Below are positions 3,079 to 37,467 of a stretch of 64,000 nucleotides of DNA, piece by piece. This DNA comes from an uncultured Candidatus Saccharibacteria bacterium (lineage in GTDB: Bacteria; Patescibacteriota; Minisyncoccia; Phycocordibacterales; UBA9973). How positions within the stretch are numbered: position 1 is the stretch's first letter; every line of letters starts with the position of its first letter. The notes beneath the pieces are model-generated. The model saw only the letters and a list, made by a program, of their open reading frames with translations. It did no database searches and was not told the origin of the DNA. The position numbers and the translations under genes were made by a program. The stretch spans positions 12,435 through 76,434 of the forward strand of contig CAYIBP010000002.1 in assembly GCA_964361705.1 (NCBI GenBank). Direction: 5' to 3'.

Positions 3079-4761
3079 TTAAAAAGCAATGTGTGAAAGC
3101 ATGTATTCTTTGGTACCGGACCCGTCTGTGCCCTCCACCTTTTTACCGGGATTGAATATTCCCTGCGGATCAAAGATATTTTTTATCTGTCTAAATATGC
3201 CTAGCATTTGATGATCATACATCTTTTTTAAATAAGGCGTGCGAATTAGTCCGTCATTATGCTCTGCTGTTATAGAACCATGATATCTATGCACCAGATC
3301 ATATACTTCTTCACTTAGATCGCTCACTATTTGCGCAATTTTTTGTTTTTTAGAATCTATCAGAGGAATGATATGGAAATTGCCATCGCCTGCGTGTCCA
3401 GCCATGGTATATACTAGTTTGTATTTACTCAAGGTGCGGTCAAGCTCTGGAAGAAATTTCGGCAGGAATTCCGGTCTGACAATAATATCGTCGATAAAGG
3501 GCGCAGTGCGAAGACCTTTTGCGTGCTTGCGAAGCAGGGAAAAACTTTCGCGTCTTACACTCCAATACTTCTCGGATTCAGATTCTCCTTTTGTCACATG
3601 GACTTTTACTTTGAAATTTTTTAATCTTTCCTTCAACTTTTGGCATTGCTTATCTGCATCTTTTTCATTCTCACCAGCAAACTCTGCAAGTAAAATCAAT
3701 TTTGGAAATCCTCCAGTAATCATCATTTTCAGTTCTGGCAAAAAACTCCATAAGAACTTTATGGATTCCAAGAACCCGCGATTTTTTAAGAAATCAGGGA
3801 AAAATCGCACAGCCAAACGCATAGTCTTGTCATCATAAGTCTCAAGTGTTTCCGGATTCGTCAACAATATCTCGTCCACCAGACTTCCTAAAGACGCCAC
3901 ATCTTTCATAAATATCGCAACTAATTTTGAATATTTTGGATTTGGCACTAATTTAAAAGTAATCTCAGTAGCAATGCAAAGTGTAGCCTGCGAACCAACC
4001 AATAATTTATTTAAGTCAAAATGAGATTCGCCTACGACATTCCATATATAGTAACCAGCGGAATTTTTGTGCACATTTGGTTTTGCTTTTTTTATTTCAT
4101 CTTTGTTTTTATTTATCAATTCATAAATATTTCCGTAAATCTCCCCCTCTAGATTCTTTTCTCTTATCTTTTTGGACAATTCATCTTGAGAAAGCGACCT
4201 TATTGTATATTCGTTGCCGTCTGAAAAGATGACCTTACTCTTGGTAACATATTTTTCTGTTTGTCCGTATTTTAAAGTTTTTTCTCCAGCAGAATTATTG
4301 CCAAACATTCCACCCATCGCATTTAGGCTCTTTGAAGCCGTATAACAAGGCAGTATCAAATCTTTTTCTAAAGTGATTTTTTCAAAATCTCTATAAAACA
4401 TTCCGGGCTGTACTGTGATCTCATCACCTTCGAATTTTACAAGCTTATTCATGTGTCTTGTAAAATCCAAAATCAAAGATTCACCTATAGCTCCGCCTGA
4501 CATATCTGTACCGGCGCATCTGGCAGTGATGGAAAGATTTTTCCAATCTTTATTTAGTTCCGTATCATGATATTTATTTTTATGAAGAGAAACAAACTTC
4601 ACCAGATTCTTTATATCTTCAGAATCTTTCGGGAAAAGAACAAGACGCGGACGCACTTCAAAAATACTCGCATCGCGAGAATACTTTGTGAGAGTTTCTT
4701 CATCGTCTTCGATTTCCCCTTTGAAGAATTTCAGTAGTTGTTCTTTTAAATCCGAAAGCAT
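3079..4761 (-). CDS. FAD-linked oxidase (GlcD / D-lactate dehydrogenase-like, FAD_binding_4 family)
   Basis: ARCAGTDMSGGAIGESLILDF FAD-binding PCMH motif. 560 aa. Confidence 0.7.
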   Translation of the reverse strand: MLSDLKEQLLKFFKGEIEDDEETLTKYSRDASIFEVRPRLVLFPKDSEDIKNLVKFVSLHKNKYHDTELNKDWKNLSITARCAGTDMSGGAIGESLILDFTRHMNKLVKFEGDEITVQPGMFYRDFEKITLEKDLILPCYTASKSLNAMGGMFGNNSAGEKTLKYGQTEKYVTKSKVIFSDGNEYTIRSLSQDELSKKIREKNLEGEIYGNIYELINKNKDEIKKAKPNVHKNSAGYYIWNVVGESHFDLNKLLVGSQATLCIATEITFKLVPNPKYSKLVAIFMKDVASLGSLVDEILLTNPETLETYDDKTMRLAVRFFPDFLKNRGFLESIKFLWSFLPELKMMITGGFPKLILLAEFAGENEKDADKQCQKLKERLKNFKVKVHVTKGESESEKYWSVRRESFSLLRKHAKGLRTAPFIDDIIVRPEFLPKFLPELDRTLSKYKLVYTMAGHAGDGNFHIIPLIDSKKQKIAQIVSDLSEEVYDLVHRYHGSITAEHNDGLIRTPYLKKMYDHQMLGIFRQIKNIFDPQGIFNPGKKVEGTDGSGTKEYMLSHIAF

Positions 4762-15677: not shown

Positions 15678-15920
15678 TTCATTATTATTACACAGTTTTG
15701 TGTCTTTATGCTATTATTAAGCTTACAAATAAATAAGCGACCTAACCCCTTAAGATTTCTTGAGGATATGGTCAAAAGACCCATAGAAGATACTGAACCC
15801 TACGTTCAGCAACTCTTCTATGGGCTATACAGGGAAACTTGTATAGGGTCGTAAGACCTAGCTGGCGTGGGGTTCTGTGCTTCTCACTGCTAGCCATTAT
15901 CAGCTAGCTTTTTATTTTCT

Positions 15921-33822: not shown

Positions 33823-35040
33823 ATGCCTAAAATAAACCCTGAGATAGAAAGTTTCGCCAGAATCATGGTCATCGGAATAGGAGGATCCGGTAAGAACGCA
33901 GTGAACCACATGATAAATTCCAAAGTCAAAGGCGTCTCGTTTATATGCATGAACACAGACACTCAAGACTTGCATCACTCCTTAGCTGAGAAAAAAATAC
34001 ACATAGGCAAAAACCTTACCAAGGGTCTCGGCGCCGGCATGAATCCAGAAGTAGGAAAAAAGGCCGCAGAGGAAACCAAAGTTGAAATTCAAGATGTGAT
34101 CAAGGGCGCAGACATGATATTCGTAGCCTGTGGCATGGGTGGAGGCACTGGTACTGGCGCGGCTCCTATCATTGCTCGCGTAGCCAAAGAACAAGGCATA
34201 CTCACAGTGGCTGTAGTCACCAAACCATTCTTCTTTGAAGGAAATCACAGAATGAAAATCGCAGAAAAAGGCATAGAAGAACTTGCCAAAGAAGTAGATG
34301 CGATTATCATAATTCCAAATGACAAATTGATTCAGCTCGCTGACAAGAACACAAATTTCCGAGACGCCTTTGCAAGCTGTGACAATGTCTTACGTCAAGC
34401 AGTAGAAGGAATTTCTGATCTTATTACTATGCCCGGTATTATCAATGTGGACTTTGCAGACATCAGATCTGTGATGACAGACGCGGGTAGCGCTCTGATG
34501 GGTATAGGAATCGCTTCAGGGGAAAACAGGGCTTCAAATGCAGCATTACAGGCTATTAATTCCCCTCTTCTAGAGGTTTCTATAAATGGAGCAAAGGGCG
34601 TACTCTTTGCCATATCAGGCGGAGATGATCTTACTATTCATGAAATACAAGAAGCGGCAAAAATAATAACTGAATCCATAGATAAAGACGCAAGAGTGAT
34701 CTTTGGTACTATTAGAGATGAAAAACTTAAGAAAGGCGAACTAAAAGTCACAGTTATCGCCACAAACTTCACAAACAATGAAGTGCTTCCAAGAAAGAAT
34801 CTTTTCACTGGCACAAACGCTATGAATCAAGCGGTACTCAAAGAAGACAACGCAGTAAAAGCAGTAAAAGAAATTCACAGTACTATACAAACATCTCAAG
34901 GAGCAAGCAACAATATTGTAAATAATGACTTCCTAAAGAAGATAGATAAAAAAGAAACTGCTCCCGAAGAAGTCATCATTGATGACGACGGCGAAGATTG
35001 GAGCGCTGTGCCTGCTTTTCTAAGAAGAAAGAAGAATTAG
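33823..35040 (+). CDS. ftsZ: Cell division GTPase FtsZ
   Basis: Tubulin signature GGGTGTG and an N-terminal GIGGSG. Confidence 0.95.
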   Translation: MPKINPEIESFARIMVIGIGGSGKNAVNHMINSKVKGVSFICMNTDTQDLHHSLAEKKIHIGKNLTKGLGAGMNPEVGKKAAEETKVEIQDVIKGADMIFVACGMGGGTGTGAAPIIARVAKEQGILTVAVVTKPFFFEGNHRMKIAEKGIEELAKEVDAIIIIPNDKLIQLADKNTNFRDAFASCDNVLRQAVEGISDLITMPGIINVDFADIRSVMTDAGSALMGIGIASGENRASNAALQAINSPLLEVSINGAKGVLFAISGGDDLTIHEIQEAAKIITESIDKDARVIFGTIRDEKLKKGELKVTVIATNFTNNEVLPRKNLFTGTNAMNQAVLKEDNAVKAVKEIHSTIQTSQGASNNIVNNDFLKKIDKKETAPEEVIIDDDGEDWSAVPAFLRRKKN

Positions 35041-35116: not shown

Positions 35117-36043
35117 ATGATTTACGATTTGATAATTATCGGGGGTGGGCCTGCAGGCACGGCGGCGTCCGTGTATGCCGCTCGCAAGAGACTCAAAACA
35201 CTATTCATCACCAAGGAATGGGGTGGCCAATCTGTCGTATCAGAACAGATTTACAACTGGATAGGCACACCCACCATATCAGGGGCTGAGCTTGCATCTA
35301 GTTTCAAAAAACACGTCATGGCAAATGTCGGCGAATCTTTGCAAGTCAAAGAAGGAATAAAAGTAGAGATGATTTCTAAAGATTCTGATACTTTCAATAT
35401 AAGATTAGAAAATAAAGAAGAATTCAAAACCAAAACAGTACTGGTCTGTACAGGCAGTGATAGACGCAGACTCGAAGCCAAAAACGCCGATGCTCTAGAA
35501 CACAAAGGCCTCACCTACTGCGCATCTTGCGATGGACCTATTTTTGCAGATATGGATGTGGTGGTAGTCGGCGGAGGCAACGCTGGTTTTGAATCCGCAG
35601 CGCAACTCCTCGCCTACTGCAAATCCGTCACACTACTACACCGCAGTGAAAATTTCCGCGCAGATGAAGTGACCGTAGAGAAAGTTTTAGCAAATCCAAA
35701 AATGAAAGCTTTTAAAAATGTGGAAATACTAGAAATCAAAGGTGAGAAATTTGTAGAAGGAATAATATATAAAGACAAAAATACAGGAGAAATCACAGAT
35801 CTACCCATCGCTGGAATATTCGTAGAAATAGGTCAAATCCCAAACACAAGCTTTATAAAAGACATTGTACCATTGGATGAGTATGGCAGAGTAAAAATAG
35901 ACCCACTAACACAAAAAACAGAAGCCGCAGGCATCTGGGCAGCGGGAGACTGCACCAATATTCTCTACCATCAAAACAACATAGCCGCTGGCGACGCCGT
36001 TCGCGCATTGGAAGACATTTACCTCTACATTCACGCAAGATGA
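35117..36043 (+). CDS. trxB: Thioredoxin-disulfide reductase
   Basis: FAD site IIGGGPAGTAA, redox CASCDG and NADPH site VVGGGNAG. Confidence 0.9.
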   Translation: MIYDLIIIGGGPAGTAASVYAARKRLKTLFITKEWGGQSVVSEQIYNWIGTPTISGAELASSFKKHVMANVGESLQVKEGIKVEMISKDSDTFNIRLENKEEFKTKTVLVCTGSDRRRLEAKNADALEHKGLTYCASCDGPIFADMDVVVVGGGNAGFESAAQLLAYCKSVTLLHRSENFRADEVTVEKVLANPKMKAFKNVEILEIKGEKFVEGIIYKDKNTGEITDLPIAGIFVEIGQIPNTSFIKDIVPLDEYGRVKIDPLTQKTEAAGIWAAGDCTNILYHQNNIAAGDAVRALEDIYLYIHAR

Positions 36044-36071
36044 GTTTTAAATAAATAGCCCAAAAAACAAC

Positions 36072-36106
36072 CAGCCGTAACATTTCCCCCGGAAATGTTA
36101 CGGCTG
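36072..36106. terminator. Perfect 16-bp stem / 3-nt loop hairpin. It is followed by a T-run on the minus strand (gttgtttttt), so it is terminator-like for minus-strand transcripts and only weakly so for trxB.
   Basis: cagccgtaacatttcc-ccc-ggaaatgttacggctg. Confidence 0.5.
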
Positions 36107-36358
36107 TAAATCAAAGCGATTGTGCACGGAAACGCTCCCTCTCCTTGCGCTTTTCCTTTCTTGTTTGCTTGTTTCCCGAAGCAAGACGCGGCTGAGCGAA
36201 AATCGGCGTCGGCCTTTTTTTCCTCCCCGTCAAAACAACTTTTGTTTTTTTTGGCGTTTGCCTTTTTTCTTTTTTTCCCCTCTTCTCCCTTCTTTTTTTG
36301 CCCAGCCACAGGCAAGAAAAATATAAGGCAAGAAATGGGGAGACAAGAATAAAAACCA
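36107..36358. repeat. 250-bp strand-skewed low-complexity tract: polypyrimidine on +, purine-rich on -. GC content is higher than the surrounding sequence.
   Basis: Overlapping K/R-rich ORFs in several frames on both strands, typical of compositional bias. One minus-strand frame (from ATG 36427) has a strong SD, AAAGGAGGGAAAAATG. Confidence 0.5.
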
Positions 36359-36396
36359 CTAGGAGGCATCGCTGCTATGACAGCGATGCCTCCTAG
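36359..36396 (-). terminator. Perfect 16-bp stem / 6-nt loop hairpin followed on the minus strand by TGGTTTTTATT. Intrinsic terminator for the 36511-36771 gene.
   Basis: ctaggaggcatcgctg-ctatga-cagcgatgcctcctag. Confidence 0.5.
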
Positions 36397-36510
36397 TATT
36401 AACATGAACAAAATTTCTTTTTTCATTTTTCCCTCCTTTGGGGAAAAGTGAACAACCAAAAAAAACGGATTTATTTCACATTAACACATATAGAATATAT
36501 ATCAAATTTC

Positions 36511-36771
36511 TTATTTTTTTGCTTCTCTTGCTCTCTTTAAATCTTCTTCCATCTTTTTTATTCTTTCATCTTCTTGCTGTTTTCTCCTTTTTTCTTCCTC
36601 TTCGGCTCTAGTAAGCTCTCTCTTAAAATCATCTAGTTTACGCTGATTATTTTGTATCTCCAATTCTTTGTCATGAACCTCTCGCTTCTTGTTTTCTAAA
36701 TCTCTCTTATTGATCTCAATTTCTTTCGTGTACCACTCTACCTCTCTTTTCAGTTGATTTATATCTGCCAT
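36511..36771 (-). CDS. Hypothetical coiled-coil protein (E/K/R-rich)
   Basis: 86-aa ORF. Confidence 0.35.
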   Translation of the reverse strand: MADINQLKREVEWYTKEIEINKRDLENKKREVHDKELEIQNNQRKLDDFKRELTRAEEEEKRRKQQEDERIKKMEEDLKRAREAKK

Positions 36772-36889
36772 ATATTTTATAAGTTAATTAATAACACCTA
36801 CATTATAAAACAATAAGTATGTTTTGCAAAATGATAACACGGTTGTCACCGCAAACTAAAAAAGCCCAGCAGTGGGCTTGTTTTAGTTG

Positions 36890-36964
36890 TGGTGACCCTA
36901 CTGGGAATCGCACCCAGATTACCAGCTTGAAAAGCTGATGTCCTAACTATTAGACGATAGGGCC
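36890..36964 (-). tRNA. tRNA-Glu (anticodon UUC), CCA encoded
   Basis: Reverse complement gives GGCCCTA...anticodon loop TTTTCAA...T-arm CTGGG TGCGATT CCCAG...TAGGGTC ACCA. A terminator-like hairpin (agccca-gcag-tgggct) lies 3' of it, at 36863-36878. Confidence 0.8.
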
Positions 36965-37163
36965 ATATTGAATCAAAAACATTATAAATCTATCATTTTT
37001 TTGAAAAAATGGCAAAAGATGATAGATTACAAGGCAAGGAGGCGTGGCTATGAAATATGAACTGCTTCATATTTCATCTGGTTCTGCTGAAAGCAGAAAT
37101 ACTCAATGCTTTATGCGAGAGTATAGGGATGTACGAAGCCACGCTATGAATTGCAATAAATAC

Positions 37164-37250
37164 GGAGGCGTGGCTGAGTGGTTGAAGGCACCGGTTTCGA
37201 AAACCGGCATTGGGGAAACCTAATCGTGAGTTCAAATCTCACCGCCTCCG
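37164..37250 (+). tRNA. tRNA-Ser (anticodon CGA), long variable arm, CCA not encoded
   Basis: Acceptor GGAGGCG/CGCCTCC, anticodon loop TTCGAAA, variable arm ATTGGGGAAACCTAAT, T-arm GTGAG TTCAAAT CTCAC. Confidence 0.8.
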
Positions 37251-37467
37251 CAGTTTGAAACGCAGTGAGAACTGCGGAGGCGAGCAAGCAAACTGCTTTG
37301 CTTGCTTGTGAGGTTTGAACGACGGAATGTCATTTTTTCAACAGAAAAAATGCATGAGTCGGTGGCTAGACCAAAAATTTCTGACGAGAAATTTTTGAGT
37401 CAAAGCCAAATCTTACCACCTCCGCAGAAAAACGAATTTTCAATTTTTAGAATACACCCCATAAATT

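Follow-up and report, generated by a model that had tools for sequence, protein, structure and literature searches.

A candidate orphan gene for a membrane-anchored polybasic protein between trxB and a coiled-coil gene in a groundwater Patescibacterium

The 467-bp gap between trxB and a minus-strand gene for an 86-amino-acid (aa) coiled-coil protein (cc86) was analysed in a 64-kb stretch of Patescibacterium DNA, which is called the window hereafter and in whose numbering all coordinates are given. The gap is among the five longest of the 38 in the window (median 115 bp) and holds a tract of skewed composition bracketed by two long perfect hairpins. The tract is read here as belonging to a small, fast-evolving, clade-restricted orphan gene on the minus strand, which would encode a membrane-anchored polybasic protein and which, in this copy, may be frameshifted, silenced or tightly gated, or dependent on slippage; our confidence in this account is evenly divided between belief and doubt. 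Both ends of the unit are conserved in one related locus, where they enclose an open reading frame (ORF) of the same architecture, and the start signal and the conserved stop of the window copy lie in different reading frames. Transcription, termination, translation and membrane activity of the unit are predicted from the DNA sequence.

As reconstructed, the unit would begin with a promoter placed directly after cc86 and a leader of about 45 nucleotides (nt), followed by an ORF for a protein that is anchored in the membrane by its N-terminus and ends in a long, disordered, polybasic tail, the skewed tract being the part that codes for the tail. Transcription would end at the hairpin nearest trxB (hairpin 1) and its U-tract. 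The annotated ORF of the window, which starts with a Shine–Dalgarno (SD) sequence and an ATG (frame A, 131 aa), differs in phase by a single base from the ORF that ends at the conserved stop (frame B, 82 aa); the gene would be off or very tightly gated. Most transcripts, those of cc86 included, would be ended by the second hairpin (hairpin 2), unless a closely trailing ribosome melts it, and the copy would be either decaying or dependent on slippage in runs of A for a 104-aa product.

Conserved ends and shared architecture

The window originates from a Nomurabacteria/Paceibacteria-like Patescibacterium that was repeatedly assembled from groundwater of the Hainich wells H51 and H52. Several Hainich samples had yielded fifteen contigs that were assembled independently of one another; over 36000-36800 these were 100% identical, homopolymers included, and hence neither the sequence nor its homopolymers are an assembly artefact. 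Exact-protein look-ups with TrxB, cc86 and FtsZ found no contigs other than 100% identical ones of the same Hainich population, which left no micro-variation to use. Related loci were sought via TrxB, and 160 were collected (80 from genomes and 80 from metagenomes). The ftsZ-trxB synteny was kept across these loci, and the content 3' of trxB was wholly variable; only one locus, L096 (Ga0247727_10001452; TrxB 87% identical to that of the window), was syntenic downstream of trxB, and it is the sole comparator. In L096, trxB is followed by a hairpin, an ORF of 107 codons (p107), a promoter-like site and a homologue of cc86 (cc83; 42% identity), in this order (Table 1). The module was absent from locus L018 and from about 155 other Nomurabacteria/Paceibacteria loci, and the tract itself gave no match to any of the fetched loci in tblastn, blastn and tblastx searches.

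Aligned segment by segment, the window and L096 correspond over the stop and terminator (z = 7.9), over the promoter and 5' untranslated region (UTR) (z = 5.1) and over the start and N-terminal part (z = 2.8), and do not correspond significantly over the tail (z = 1.2). Ends that align around a tail that does not would fit a tail constrained in composition only. The alignment of related genomes, by which the preliminary description of the region had proposed to tell a gene from a spacer, thus recovered the ends and the architecture in L096 and left the interior unaligned.

The downstream end is marked by hairpin 1 (36072-36106; perfect 16-bp stem, 3-nt loop), after which the minus strand continues with GTTGTTTTTT and a T6 run at 36067-36062. 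Relative to the hairpin of L096, 5 of the 16 pairs have changed on both sides, and 97% of the cells stay paired, against 34-56% with slid partners. Because of these compensatory changes, hairpin 1 is read as a conserved Rho-independent terminator of the small minus-strand gene, termination itself being predicted. The stop codon of the conserved frame lies 4 nt upstream of the hairpin in the window and 5 nt upstream in L096. At the opposite end, a promoter-like element begins 5 nt past the stop codon of cc86 and aligns with the TTGACT-16-(TG)TATTTT site of L096. The latter was called as a promoter by the scan; the site of the window went uncalled because its -10 hexamer matches at 3 of 6 positions, and its function as a promoter is putative.

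Between these ends, p107 starts with MAMNLVFEDG, continues with a 24-residue hydrophobic segment and closes with a 73-residue tail of 37% K+R and 3% D+E (net charge of p107 +25, isoelectric point (pI) 11.8). Its frame is open where 4.4 stops would be expected (P = 0.009, 60-nt block shuffles). In frame B of the window, a transmembrane (TM) segment (residues 1-21) precedes a polybasic tail (net charge +22, pI 11.7); the TGA of this frame aligns with the stop of p107, and its tail is the p107-like one. A six-frame scan of 1.07 Mb, comprising all loci and the window, for an N-terminal TM segment followed by a basic tail retrieved only p107 and frame B, and both remained the top two of 2540 ORFs at relaxed thresholds, the other matches being mis-started bS21 and YbeY fragments. 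Ribosomal protein bS21, which is a small basic protein whose gene bears an SD in some SD-poor lineages, was considered as an identity for the ORF and rejected, given that no similarity was found and that the TM segment does not fit. In both lineages, the ORF frame scores as coding over its first 25-30 codons. Among the possibilities raised in the preliminary description, a small basic membrane-anchored protein is best supported by the 107-aa TM/polybasic ORF of L096, the shared promoter-like block and the terminator; the part of that proposal which is doubtful is the 131-aa frame starting at the SD and ATG.

The composition of the tract is in line with such a gene. On the minus strand, 36107-36356 is 59% purine and has a G+C content (GC) of 44%, and the tail of L096 reaches 50%, compared with 37% for coding and 34% for intergenic DNA of the window, which in AT-biased compact genomes argues against a neutral, AT-drifting spacer. 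The skew described earlier for all 250 bp is real but less uniform than claimed, as only a core at about 36200-36300 is strongly skewed (AT skew -0.70, GC skew -0.44, about 80% pyrimidine on the plus strand). Products rich in K, R, E and G, which had been ascribed to every frame on either strand, were found in all three minus frames; the plus frames are rich in F, L, S and P and not in K. K, R, E and G have purine-rich codons, which leave few T in the minus-strand tail from which stop codons could be formed, so that all frames stay open. The mRNA is predicted to be strongly structured (z = -7.4 in the window, -4.1 in L096), the inner tract on the minus strand folding with only z = -2.0. Within the internal imperfect hairpin, U-rich codons of a second hydrophobic stretch pair with A/G-rich codons of the polybasic part; codons for hydrophobic residues are U-rich and those for Lys, Glu and Arg A/G-rich and thus complementary, so that such pairing, and with it a highly structured RNA, is expected. 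On the plus strand, the pyrimidine core at 36269-36296 forms a near mirror repeat with the halves TTTTTTTCCCCTCT and TCTCCCTTCTTTTT (12 of 14 positions match), and mirror repeats of this kind can form intramolecular triplex DNA.

Table 1. Features of the trxB-cc86 gap, of the neighbouring genes and of the corresponding region of L096 (L096 positions in the numbering of that contig)
Feature	Position	Strand	Remarks
Promoter-like element	36478..36505	-	-35 TTGATA (36505-36500), 16-nt spacer ending TGT, -10 TAATGT (36483-36478)
Predicted 5' UTR with U8 run	36427..36470	-	Minimum free energy (MFE) folds, inverted repeat
Frame A ORF	36031..36426	-	131 aa; NCBI hypothetical protein AAB873_01845
Hairpin 2	36357..36398	-	17-bp perfect palindrome, intrinsic-terminator-like, 28 nt into frame A
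Frame B ORF	36111..36359	-	82 aa; GTG start; TGA stop 36113-36111, 4 nt before hairpin 1
Internal imperfect hairpin	36262..36349	-	Inverted repeat and folds
Purine-rich core	36215..36299	-	Five A6-A8 runs, starting at 36299, 36276, 36268, 36252 and 36221
Hairpin 1 and U-tract	36058..36106	-	Predicted conserved intrinsic terminator of the minus-strand unit
ftsA	Upstream of ftsZ	+	
ftsZ	33823-35040	+	
trxB	35117-36043	+	Converges on the minus-strand unit
cc86	36771-36511	-	86-aa coiled-coil gene
tRNA-Glu	36890-36964	-	
L096 hairpin	3966-3998		15 bp, minus-strand T-run; next after trxB
L096 p107	4327-4004	-	107-aa ORF; stop 5 nt before hairpin
L096 promoter-like site	4401-4374		TTGACT-16-(TG)TATTTT; called by scan
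L096 cc83			cc86 homologue; after the promoter-like site in L096 order

Frame conflict, start signal and hairpin 2

Frame A opens with the SD AAAGGAGGG at 36439-36431, a 5-nt spacer and an ATG at 36426-36424, one base off the 36427 given in the preliminary description. Its product is hydrophobic at the N-terminus (residues 5-42) and K-rich in the tail; the ORF crosses both hairpins and overlaps the 3' end of trxB by 13 nt. The observation that the TM segment is partly encoded by a palindrome holds, hairpin 2 specifying residues 10-24. Gene-like coding potential is confined to 36425-36380. The stop codon (36033-36031) lies at least 25 nt past the T-run of hairpin 1, and a transcript ending at that hairpin would hence be without a frame A stop. 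The two frames differ in their specific peptides, which are ADADFR and, in the tail, ANAKKNKSCFDGEEK and the C-terminal GYLFKTHLA for frame A, and VVLTGR and PTPIFAQPR for frame B. Pfam gave no match for frame A and, for frame B, only a sub-threshold one to UPF0542 (14 bits; cut-off 27).

The interval from the ATG to the conserved TGA measures 316 nt (3n+1) in the window and 324 nt in L096. Frame B is +1 relative to frame A, and the start frame is separated from the conserved-stop frame by five A6-A8 runs. The loss of one A from any of these runs would join frame A to frame B and give a 104-aa product with a TM segment and polybasic tail ending at the conserved stop; the gain of one A would give a 65-aa form. 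The simplest account of the conflict would be a 1-nt homopolymer frameshift, which may be a fixed lesion, a phase-variable state or one that is corrected by slippage. The arrangement is like the transcriptional slippage known from A-runs of reduced AT-rich genomes, dnaX-type A_AAA_AAG ribosomal frameshift sites and phase-variable contingency genes in that five A-runs separate the frames, a single-A change yields a protein of the size of the orthologue and frame A contains three in-phase A_AAA_AAG heptamers. It differs in that the needed shift is +1 (one A lost) instead of the -1 that A_AAA_AAG promotes, in that L096 has a single frame and in that the 15 assemblies, which are consensus sequences only, have no length heterogeneity. 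Efficient slippage is known for runs of 9 or more, and the A6-A8 runs here are shorter. For a programmed -1 frameshift, in-phase heptamers are present, but such a shift leads to frame C (65 aa) instead of the conserved stop; a stimulatory element for it was not found, and L096 needs no shift. Stop-start coupling at TAGTG into frame B was also tried and rejected, the upstream stretch of frame C being without a start codon.

The SD was set against initiation signals across the genome. GGAGG preceded 0 of 49 long ORFs and any 4-nt SD core only 3 of the 49, which is the random rate (7.8% at random positions); of the 60 GGAGG sites, none other than the one at this ORF stands before a long gene. A -10-like hexamer stands ahead of 19 of the 49 long ORFs, its end 4-12 nt from the start (6% at random positions), which implies leaderless or short-leader mRNAs. 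Judged by these counts, the genome is essentially SD-free and largely leaderless. The SD that had been described as excellent is real, but it is an exceptional rather than a routine signal and for that reason weaker evidence of a gene than it appears. In MFE folds, the leader stretch CUUUUCCCC is predicted to pair with the SD and the start region; the stretch with which an anti-SD would pair is AAAGGAGG. The leader of L096 has only a degenerate purine stretch in place of a strong SD.

Hairpin 2 (36358-36397) has a perfect 17-bp stem and a 6-nt loop; at the RNA level, 19 pairs close a 4-nt loop (-36 kcal/mol, z = -8.5), and the minus strand continues with GGTTTTTATT, with a T5 run at 36355-36351. 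The hairpin is confined to the window lineage and not conserved in L096, where only a weak, AU-rich hairpin (-18.9 kcal/mol) with its U-run itself paired occupies the same position, and no further copies were found in the window, the related loci or viral contigs. Two perfect palindromic hairpins with T-runs on the minus strand had been described before, both with 16-bp stems, and were confirmed with the longer stem for hairpin 2. No other perfect hairpin of the window reaches their length (0.8 stems of >=10 bp are expected per window from mononucleotide shuffles), and the arms of neither have a second copy anywhere in it. Both score as minus-strand terminators. They are like intrinsic terminators and attenuators in their G+C-containing perfect stems and minus-strand U-runs, as well as in the covariation of hairpin 1 at the 3' end of the unit; they differ in their much longer stems (16-19 bp, against 7-13 bp for the other terminator-like hairpins of the window), in the location of hairpin 2 within an ORF and in the lack of a plus-strand U-tract at hairpin 1 for the convergent trxB. 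Hairpin 1 is probably the sole hairpin available to trxB as well, and without that U-tract read-through from trxB is possible.

With its start 28 nt past the ATG and a U5 run behind it, hairpin 2 would be expected to end transcripts from both the promoter of the small gene and cc86, unless a ribosome is already in its 5' arm. Its role may be that of a tight expression gate or of a terminator recruited for cc86 during decay of the small gene. The arms of hairpin 2 hold GGAGG and CCTCC (CCUCC in RNA) on both strands, and the stem mimics SD/anti-SD pairing. Within 80 nt of minus strand that include the SD at 36436-36432, GGAGG occurs twice and CCTCC once; the genome rate is about one GGAGG per 2 kb of strand.

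Alternative explanations and likeness to type I toxins

Several results weigh against the reading of the tract as a gene for a membrane-anchored polybasic protein. The coding potential of the tail is about zero or negative in every frame of both lineages, and the codon-usage and 3-periodic Markov scores used for this purpose allow no choice of frame there. The open frames of the window are unremarkable given the local composition (P = 0.11); ORF openness was tested with 60-nt block shuffles, which replaced whole-gap dinucleotide shuffles because the latter mix the AT-rich flanks with the tract and so overstate the significance of ORFs. Frameshift-aware alignment of p107 to the DNA of the window scored 42, which is not significant against 32.8 +/- 5.3 for shuffles, and a single comparator with unalignable tails permits no codon-level (dN/dS) test. 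No homologue of frame A was found among 5.8 billion proteins (word-indexed search, which returned only the query itself) and none of frame B among 1.84 billion representative proteins (HMMER), bar one spurious tandem-repeat hit; the word-indexed protein search with p107 was likewise empty. Furthermore, the only start of frame B is a GTG at the foot of hairpin 2 that is without a recognisable initiation signal, and the criteria of the architecture scan were set after the data had been seen.

The annotated frame A could instead be the intact, functional product, with two hydrophobic segments and a K-rich tail translated through both hairpins. No other frame offers an ATG together with an SD; frame A is also open throughout, was called by three gene callers and by NCBI, and has a codon-usage score of 0.23 per codon, inside the gene range of 0.29 +/- 0.07. 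We nevertheless consider this unlikely, as its openness is expected from the local composition, the conserved stop and the p107-like tail belong to frame B, its own stop lies past the T-run of the conserved terminator, and its last 35 residues are antisense to that terminator and to the end of trxB; it would, moreover, combine an SD in a genome without SD usage with a terminator hairpin of -36 kcal/mol inside the ORF. The annotated 131-aa ORF is probably not the functional product. Were the tract a non-coding element instead, it could be a small RNA, either structured or purine-rich, transcribed between the terminators, the purine-rich variant having been suggested before, or a long 3' region in which hairpin 2 ends cc86 and hairpin 1 ends trxB as well as cc86 read-through, and the ORFs would be by-products of composition. 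The unconserved interior between conserved ends, the tail without coding signal in any frame, the several open frames on both strands that composition predicts and the high degree of structure would all suit such an element. Positive support for the small RNA was not found: Rfam searches of the locus, the whole window and L096 gave no relevant match to the region in either lineage, only sub-threshold chance hits to microRNA and U7, the interior is unconserved in sequence and in structure, and no conserved internal structure can be defined, the inner tract being the weakly folding part. There is also no promoter at standard spacing between hairpin 2 and the tract. A non-coding element further leaves unexplained why a TM plus polybasic ORF ends shortly before the terminator in each of the two lineages but at no other place in the 1.07 Mb scanned, and why the frame of L096 is open, and is in our view rather improbable.

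An insertion or recombination scar, or the remnant of a hairpin-bracketed non-autonomous element of the kind of miniature inverted-repeat (MITE) or palindrome-associated (PATE) transposable elements, would agree with the absence of the module from L018 and all other related loci, with the atypical GC content and with the rearrangement of nearby tRNA genes relative to L096. As a recent event, the scar proposed earlier is unlikely because the module is common to the window and L096; in addition, hairpin 1 is a covarying conserved terminator that L096 shares, the two hairpins are not related to each other by sequence and occur once each, and neither terminal inverted repeats nor target duplications nor a nearby transposase were found, so that a scar of any of these kinds appears highly improbable. 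A mobile element bracketed by the hairpins was rejected on similar grounds, the hairpins being unrelated, single-copy and absent from viral contigs. The derivation of the tract from a decayed C-terminus of cc86 was rejected as well, as the C-termini of cc86, cc83 and the coiled-coil gene of L018 (cc140) correspond to one another.

Resemblance to type I toxin-antitoxin modules was assessed by comparison with YonT (58 aa) and TxpA (59 aa) of Bacillus subtilis. Both have a hydrophobic N-terminus and a hydrophilic C-terminus, with 75% K/R in the last 20 residues of YonT, and the SDs of their genes are the strongest in B. subtilis (PMC3531473). Membrane type I toxins are generally shorter than 60 aa and have one predicted TM helix and cationic C-terminal residues (PMC8309996). 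The locus is like these in its N-terminal TM segment (Kyte-Doolittle 2.2-2.8) and strongly K/R-rich C-terminus (tail net charge +13 to +22, L096 +25), in an SD that is unusually strong for the genome and predicted to be paired within a structured mRNA, in a putative stand-alone promoter, a strong terminator, lineage restriction and the absence of detectable homologues, and in a convergent neighbour whose read-through could serve as antisense RNA. It differs in the size of its products (82, 104 or 131 aa; only the hypothetical variant with one A gained, at 65 aa, is of a YonT-like size), in that neither an antitoxin RNA nor a promoter for one was found and no plus-strand promoter is conserved with L096, in the absence of sequence similarity to any toxin family, and in that L096 has neither a strong SD nor hairpin 2.

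A type I-like module in the full sense, in which a toxic membrane peptide would be silenced by SD sequestration, an internal terminator and an antisense RNA, perhaps from trxB read-through, would draw further on the SD being exceptional in an SD-less genome, with SD and start predicted to be paired in the leader, on the highly structured mRNA in both lineages and on the character of the locus as an orphan, clade-restricted and GC-atypical cassette adjoining tRNA genes. Given the differences in size, antitoxin, conservation and sequence listed above, we hold it to be improbable. The locus is accordingly not filed as a type I system; the resemblance may indicate a possible way of working and does not establish membership. 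A more specific combination is conceivable, namely a toxin-like membrane gene under a double lock, whose SD would be paired within the leader and whose in-ORF terminator would be overridden only by a closely trailing ribosome, with the C-terminus set by slippage in the A-runs. Its outcomes would be the 65-aa form, the 104-aa form with the conserved stop at its end, or a stop-less 131-aa form destroyed via transfer-messenger RNA (tmRNA) tagging. We regard this combination as very doubtful; if true, the Candidate Phyla Radiation would gain its first described module that is type-I-toxin-like and slippage-dependent.

If the preferred reading as a small membrane-protein gene is correct, very reduced Patescibacteria genomes would keep fast-evolving orphan genes for small membrane proteins that are missed by homology searches and mis-framed by gene callers, the annotated 131-aa ORF being a concrete case of one that is probably not the product. 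The locus would also be a compact natural test of an in-ORF intrinsic terminator together with a rare strong SD in an organism that initiates without SDs. If the copy is merely decaying, it would reflect ordinary genome turnover.

Neighbouring genes and further observations

The coiled-coil gene next to the tract is itself fast-evolving and length-variable, with 86 aa in the window (36511-36771, minus strand), 83 aa in L096 (4405-4656, minus strand) and 140 aa in L018 (4979-5401, minus strand). It belongs to no Pfam family and has no database homologue (the word-indexed protein search with cc86 was empty). In L018, the coiled-coil gene adjoins trxB across a 38-nt spacer without a hairpin. Beyond it, the tRNA-Glu/tRNA-Ser pair is flipped as a block between the window (36890-37251) and L096 (4701-4942), which points to local rearrangement.

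Two independent assemblies break exactly within the hairpins, L087 with its end at window position 36085 in hairpin 1 and L004 with its end at 36373 in hairpin 2; such breaks are typical of ordinary assembler behaviour on long perfect palindromes. Another GGAGG, followed by a 7-nt spacer, an ATG and then directly a 12-bp perfect hairpin (37050-37077), is located on the plus strand at 37034-37077, in the spacer between tRNA-Glu and tRNA-Ser, and the 57-codon frame that it precedes reaches into tRNA-Ser. Elsewhere in the window, a full-length match to the LOOT RNA (Rfam RF03000) was found on the plus strand at 15739-15859, with 82.4 bits against a gathering score of 46.4.

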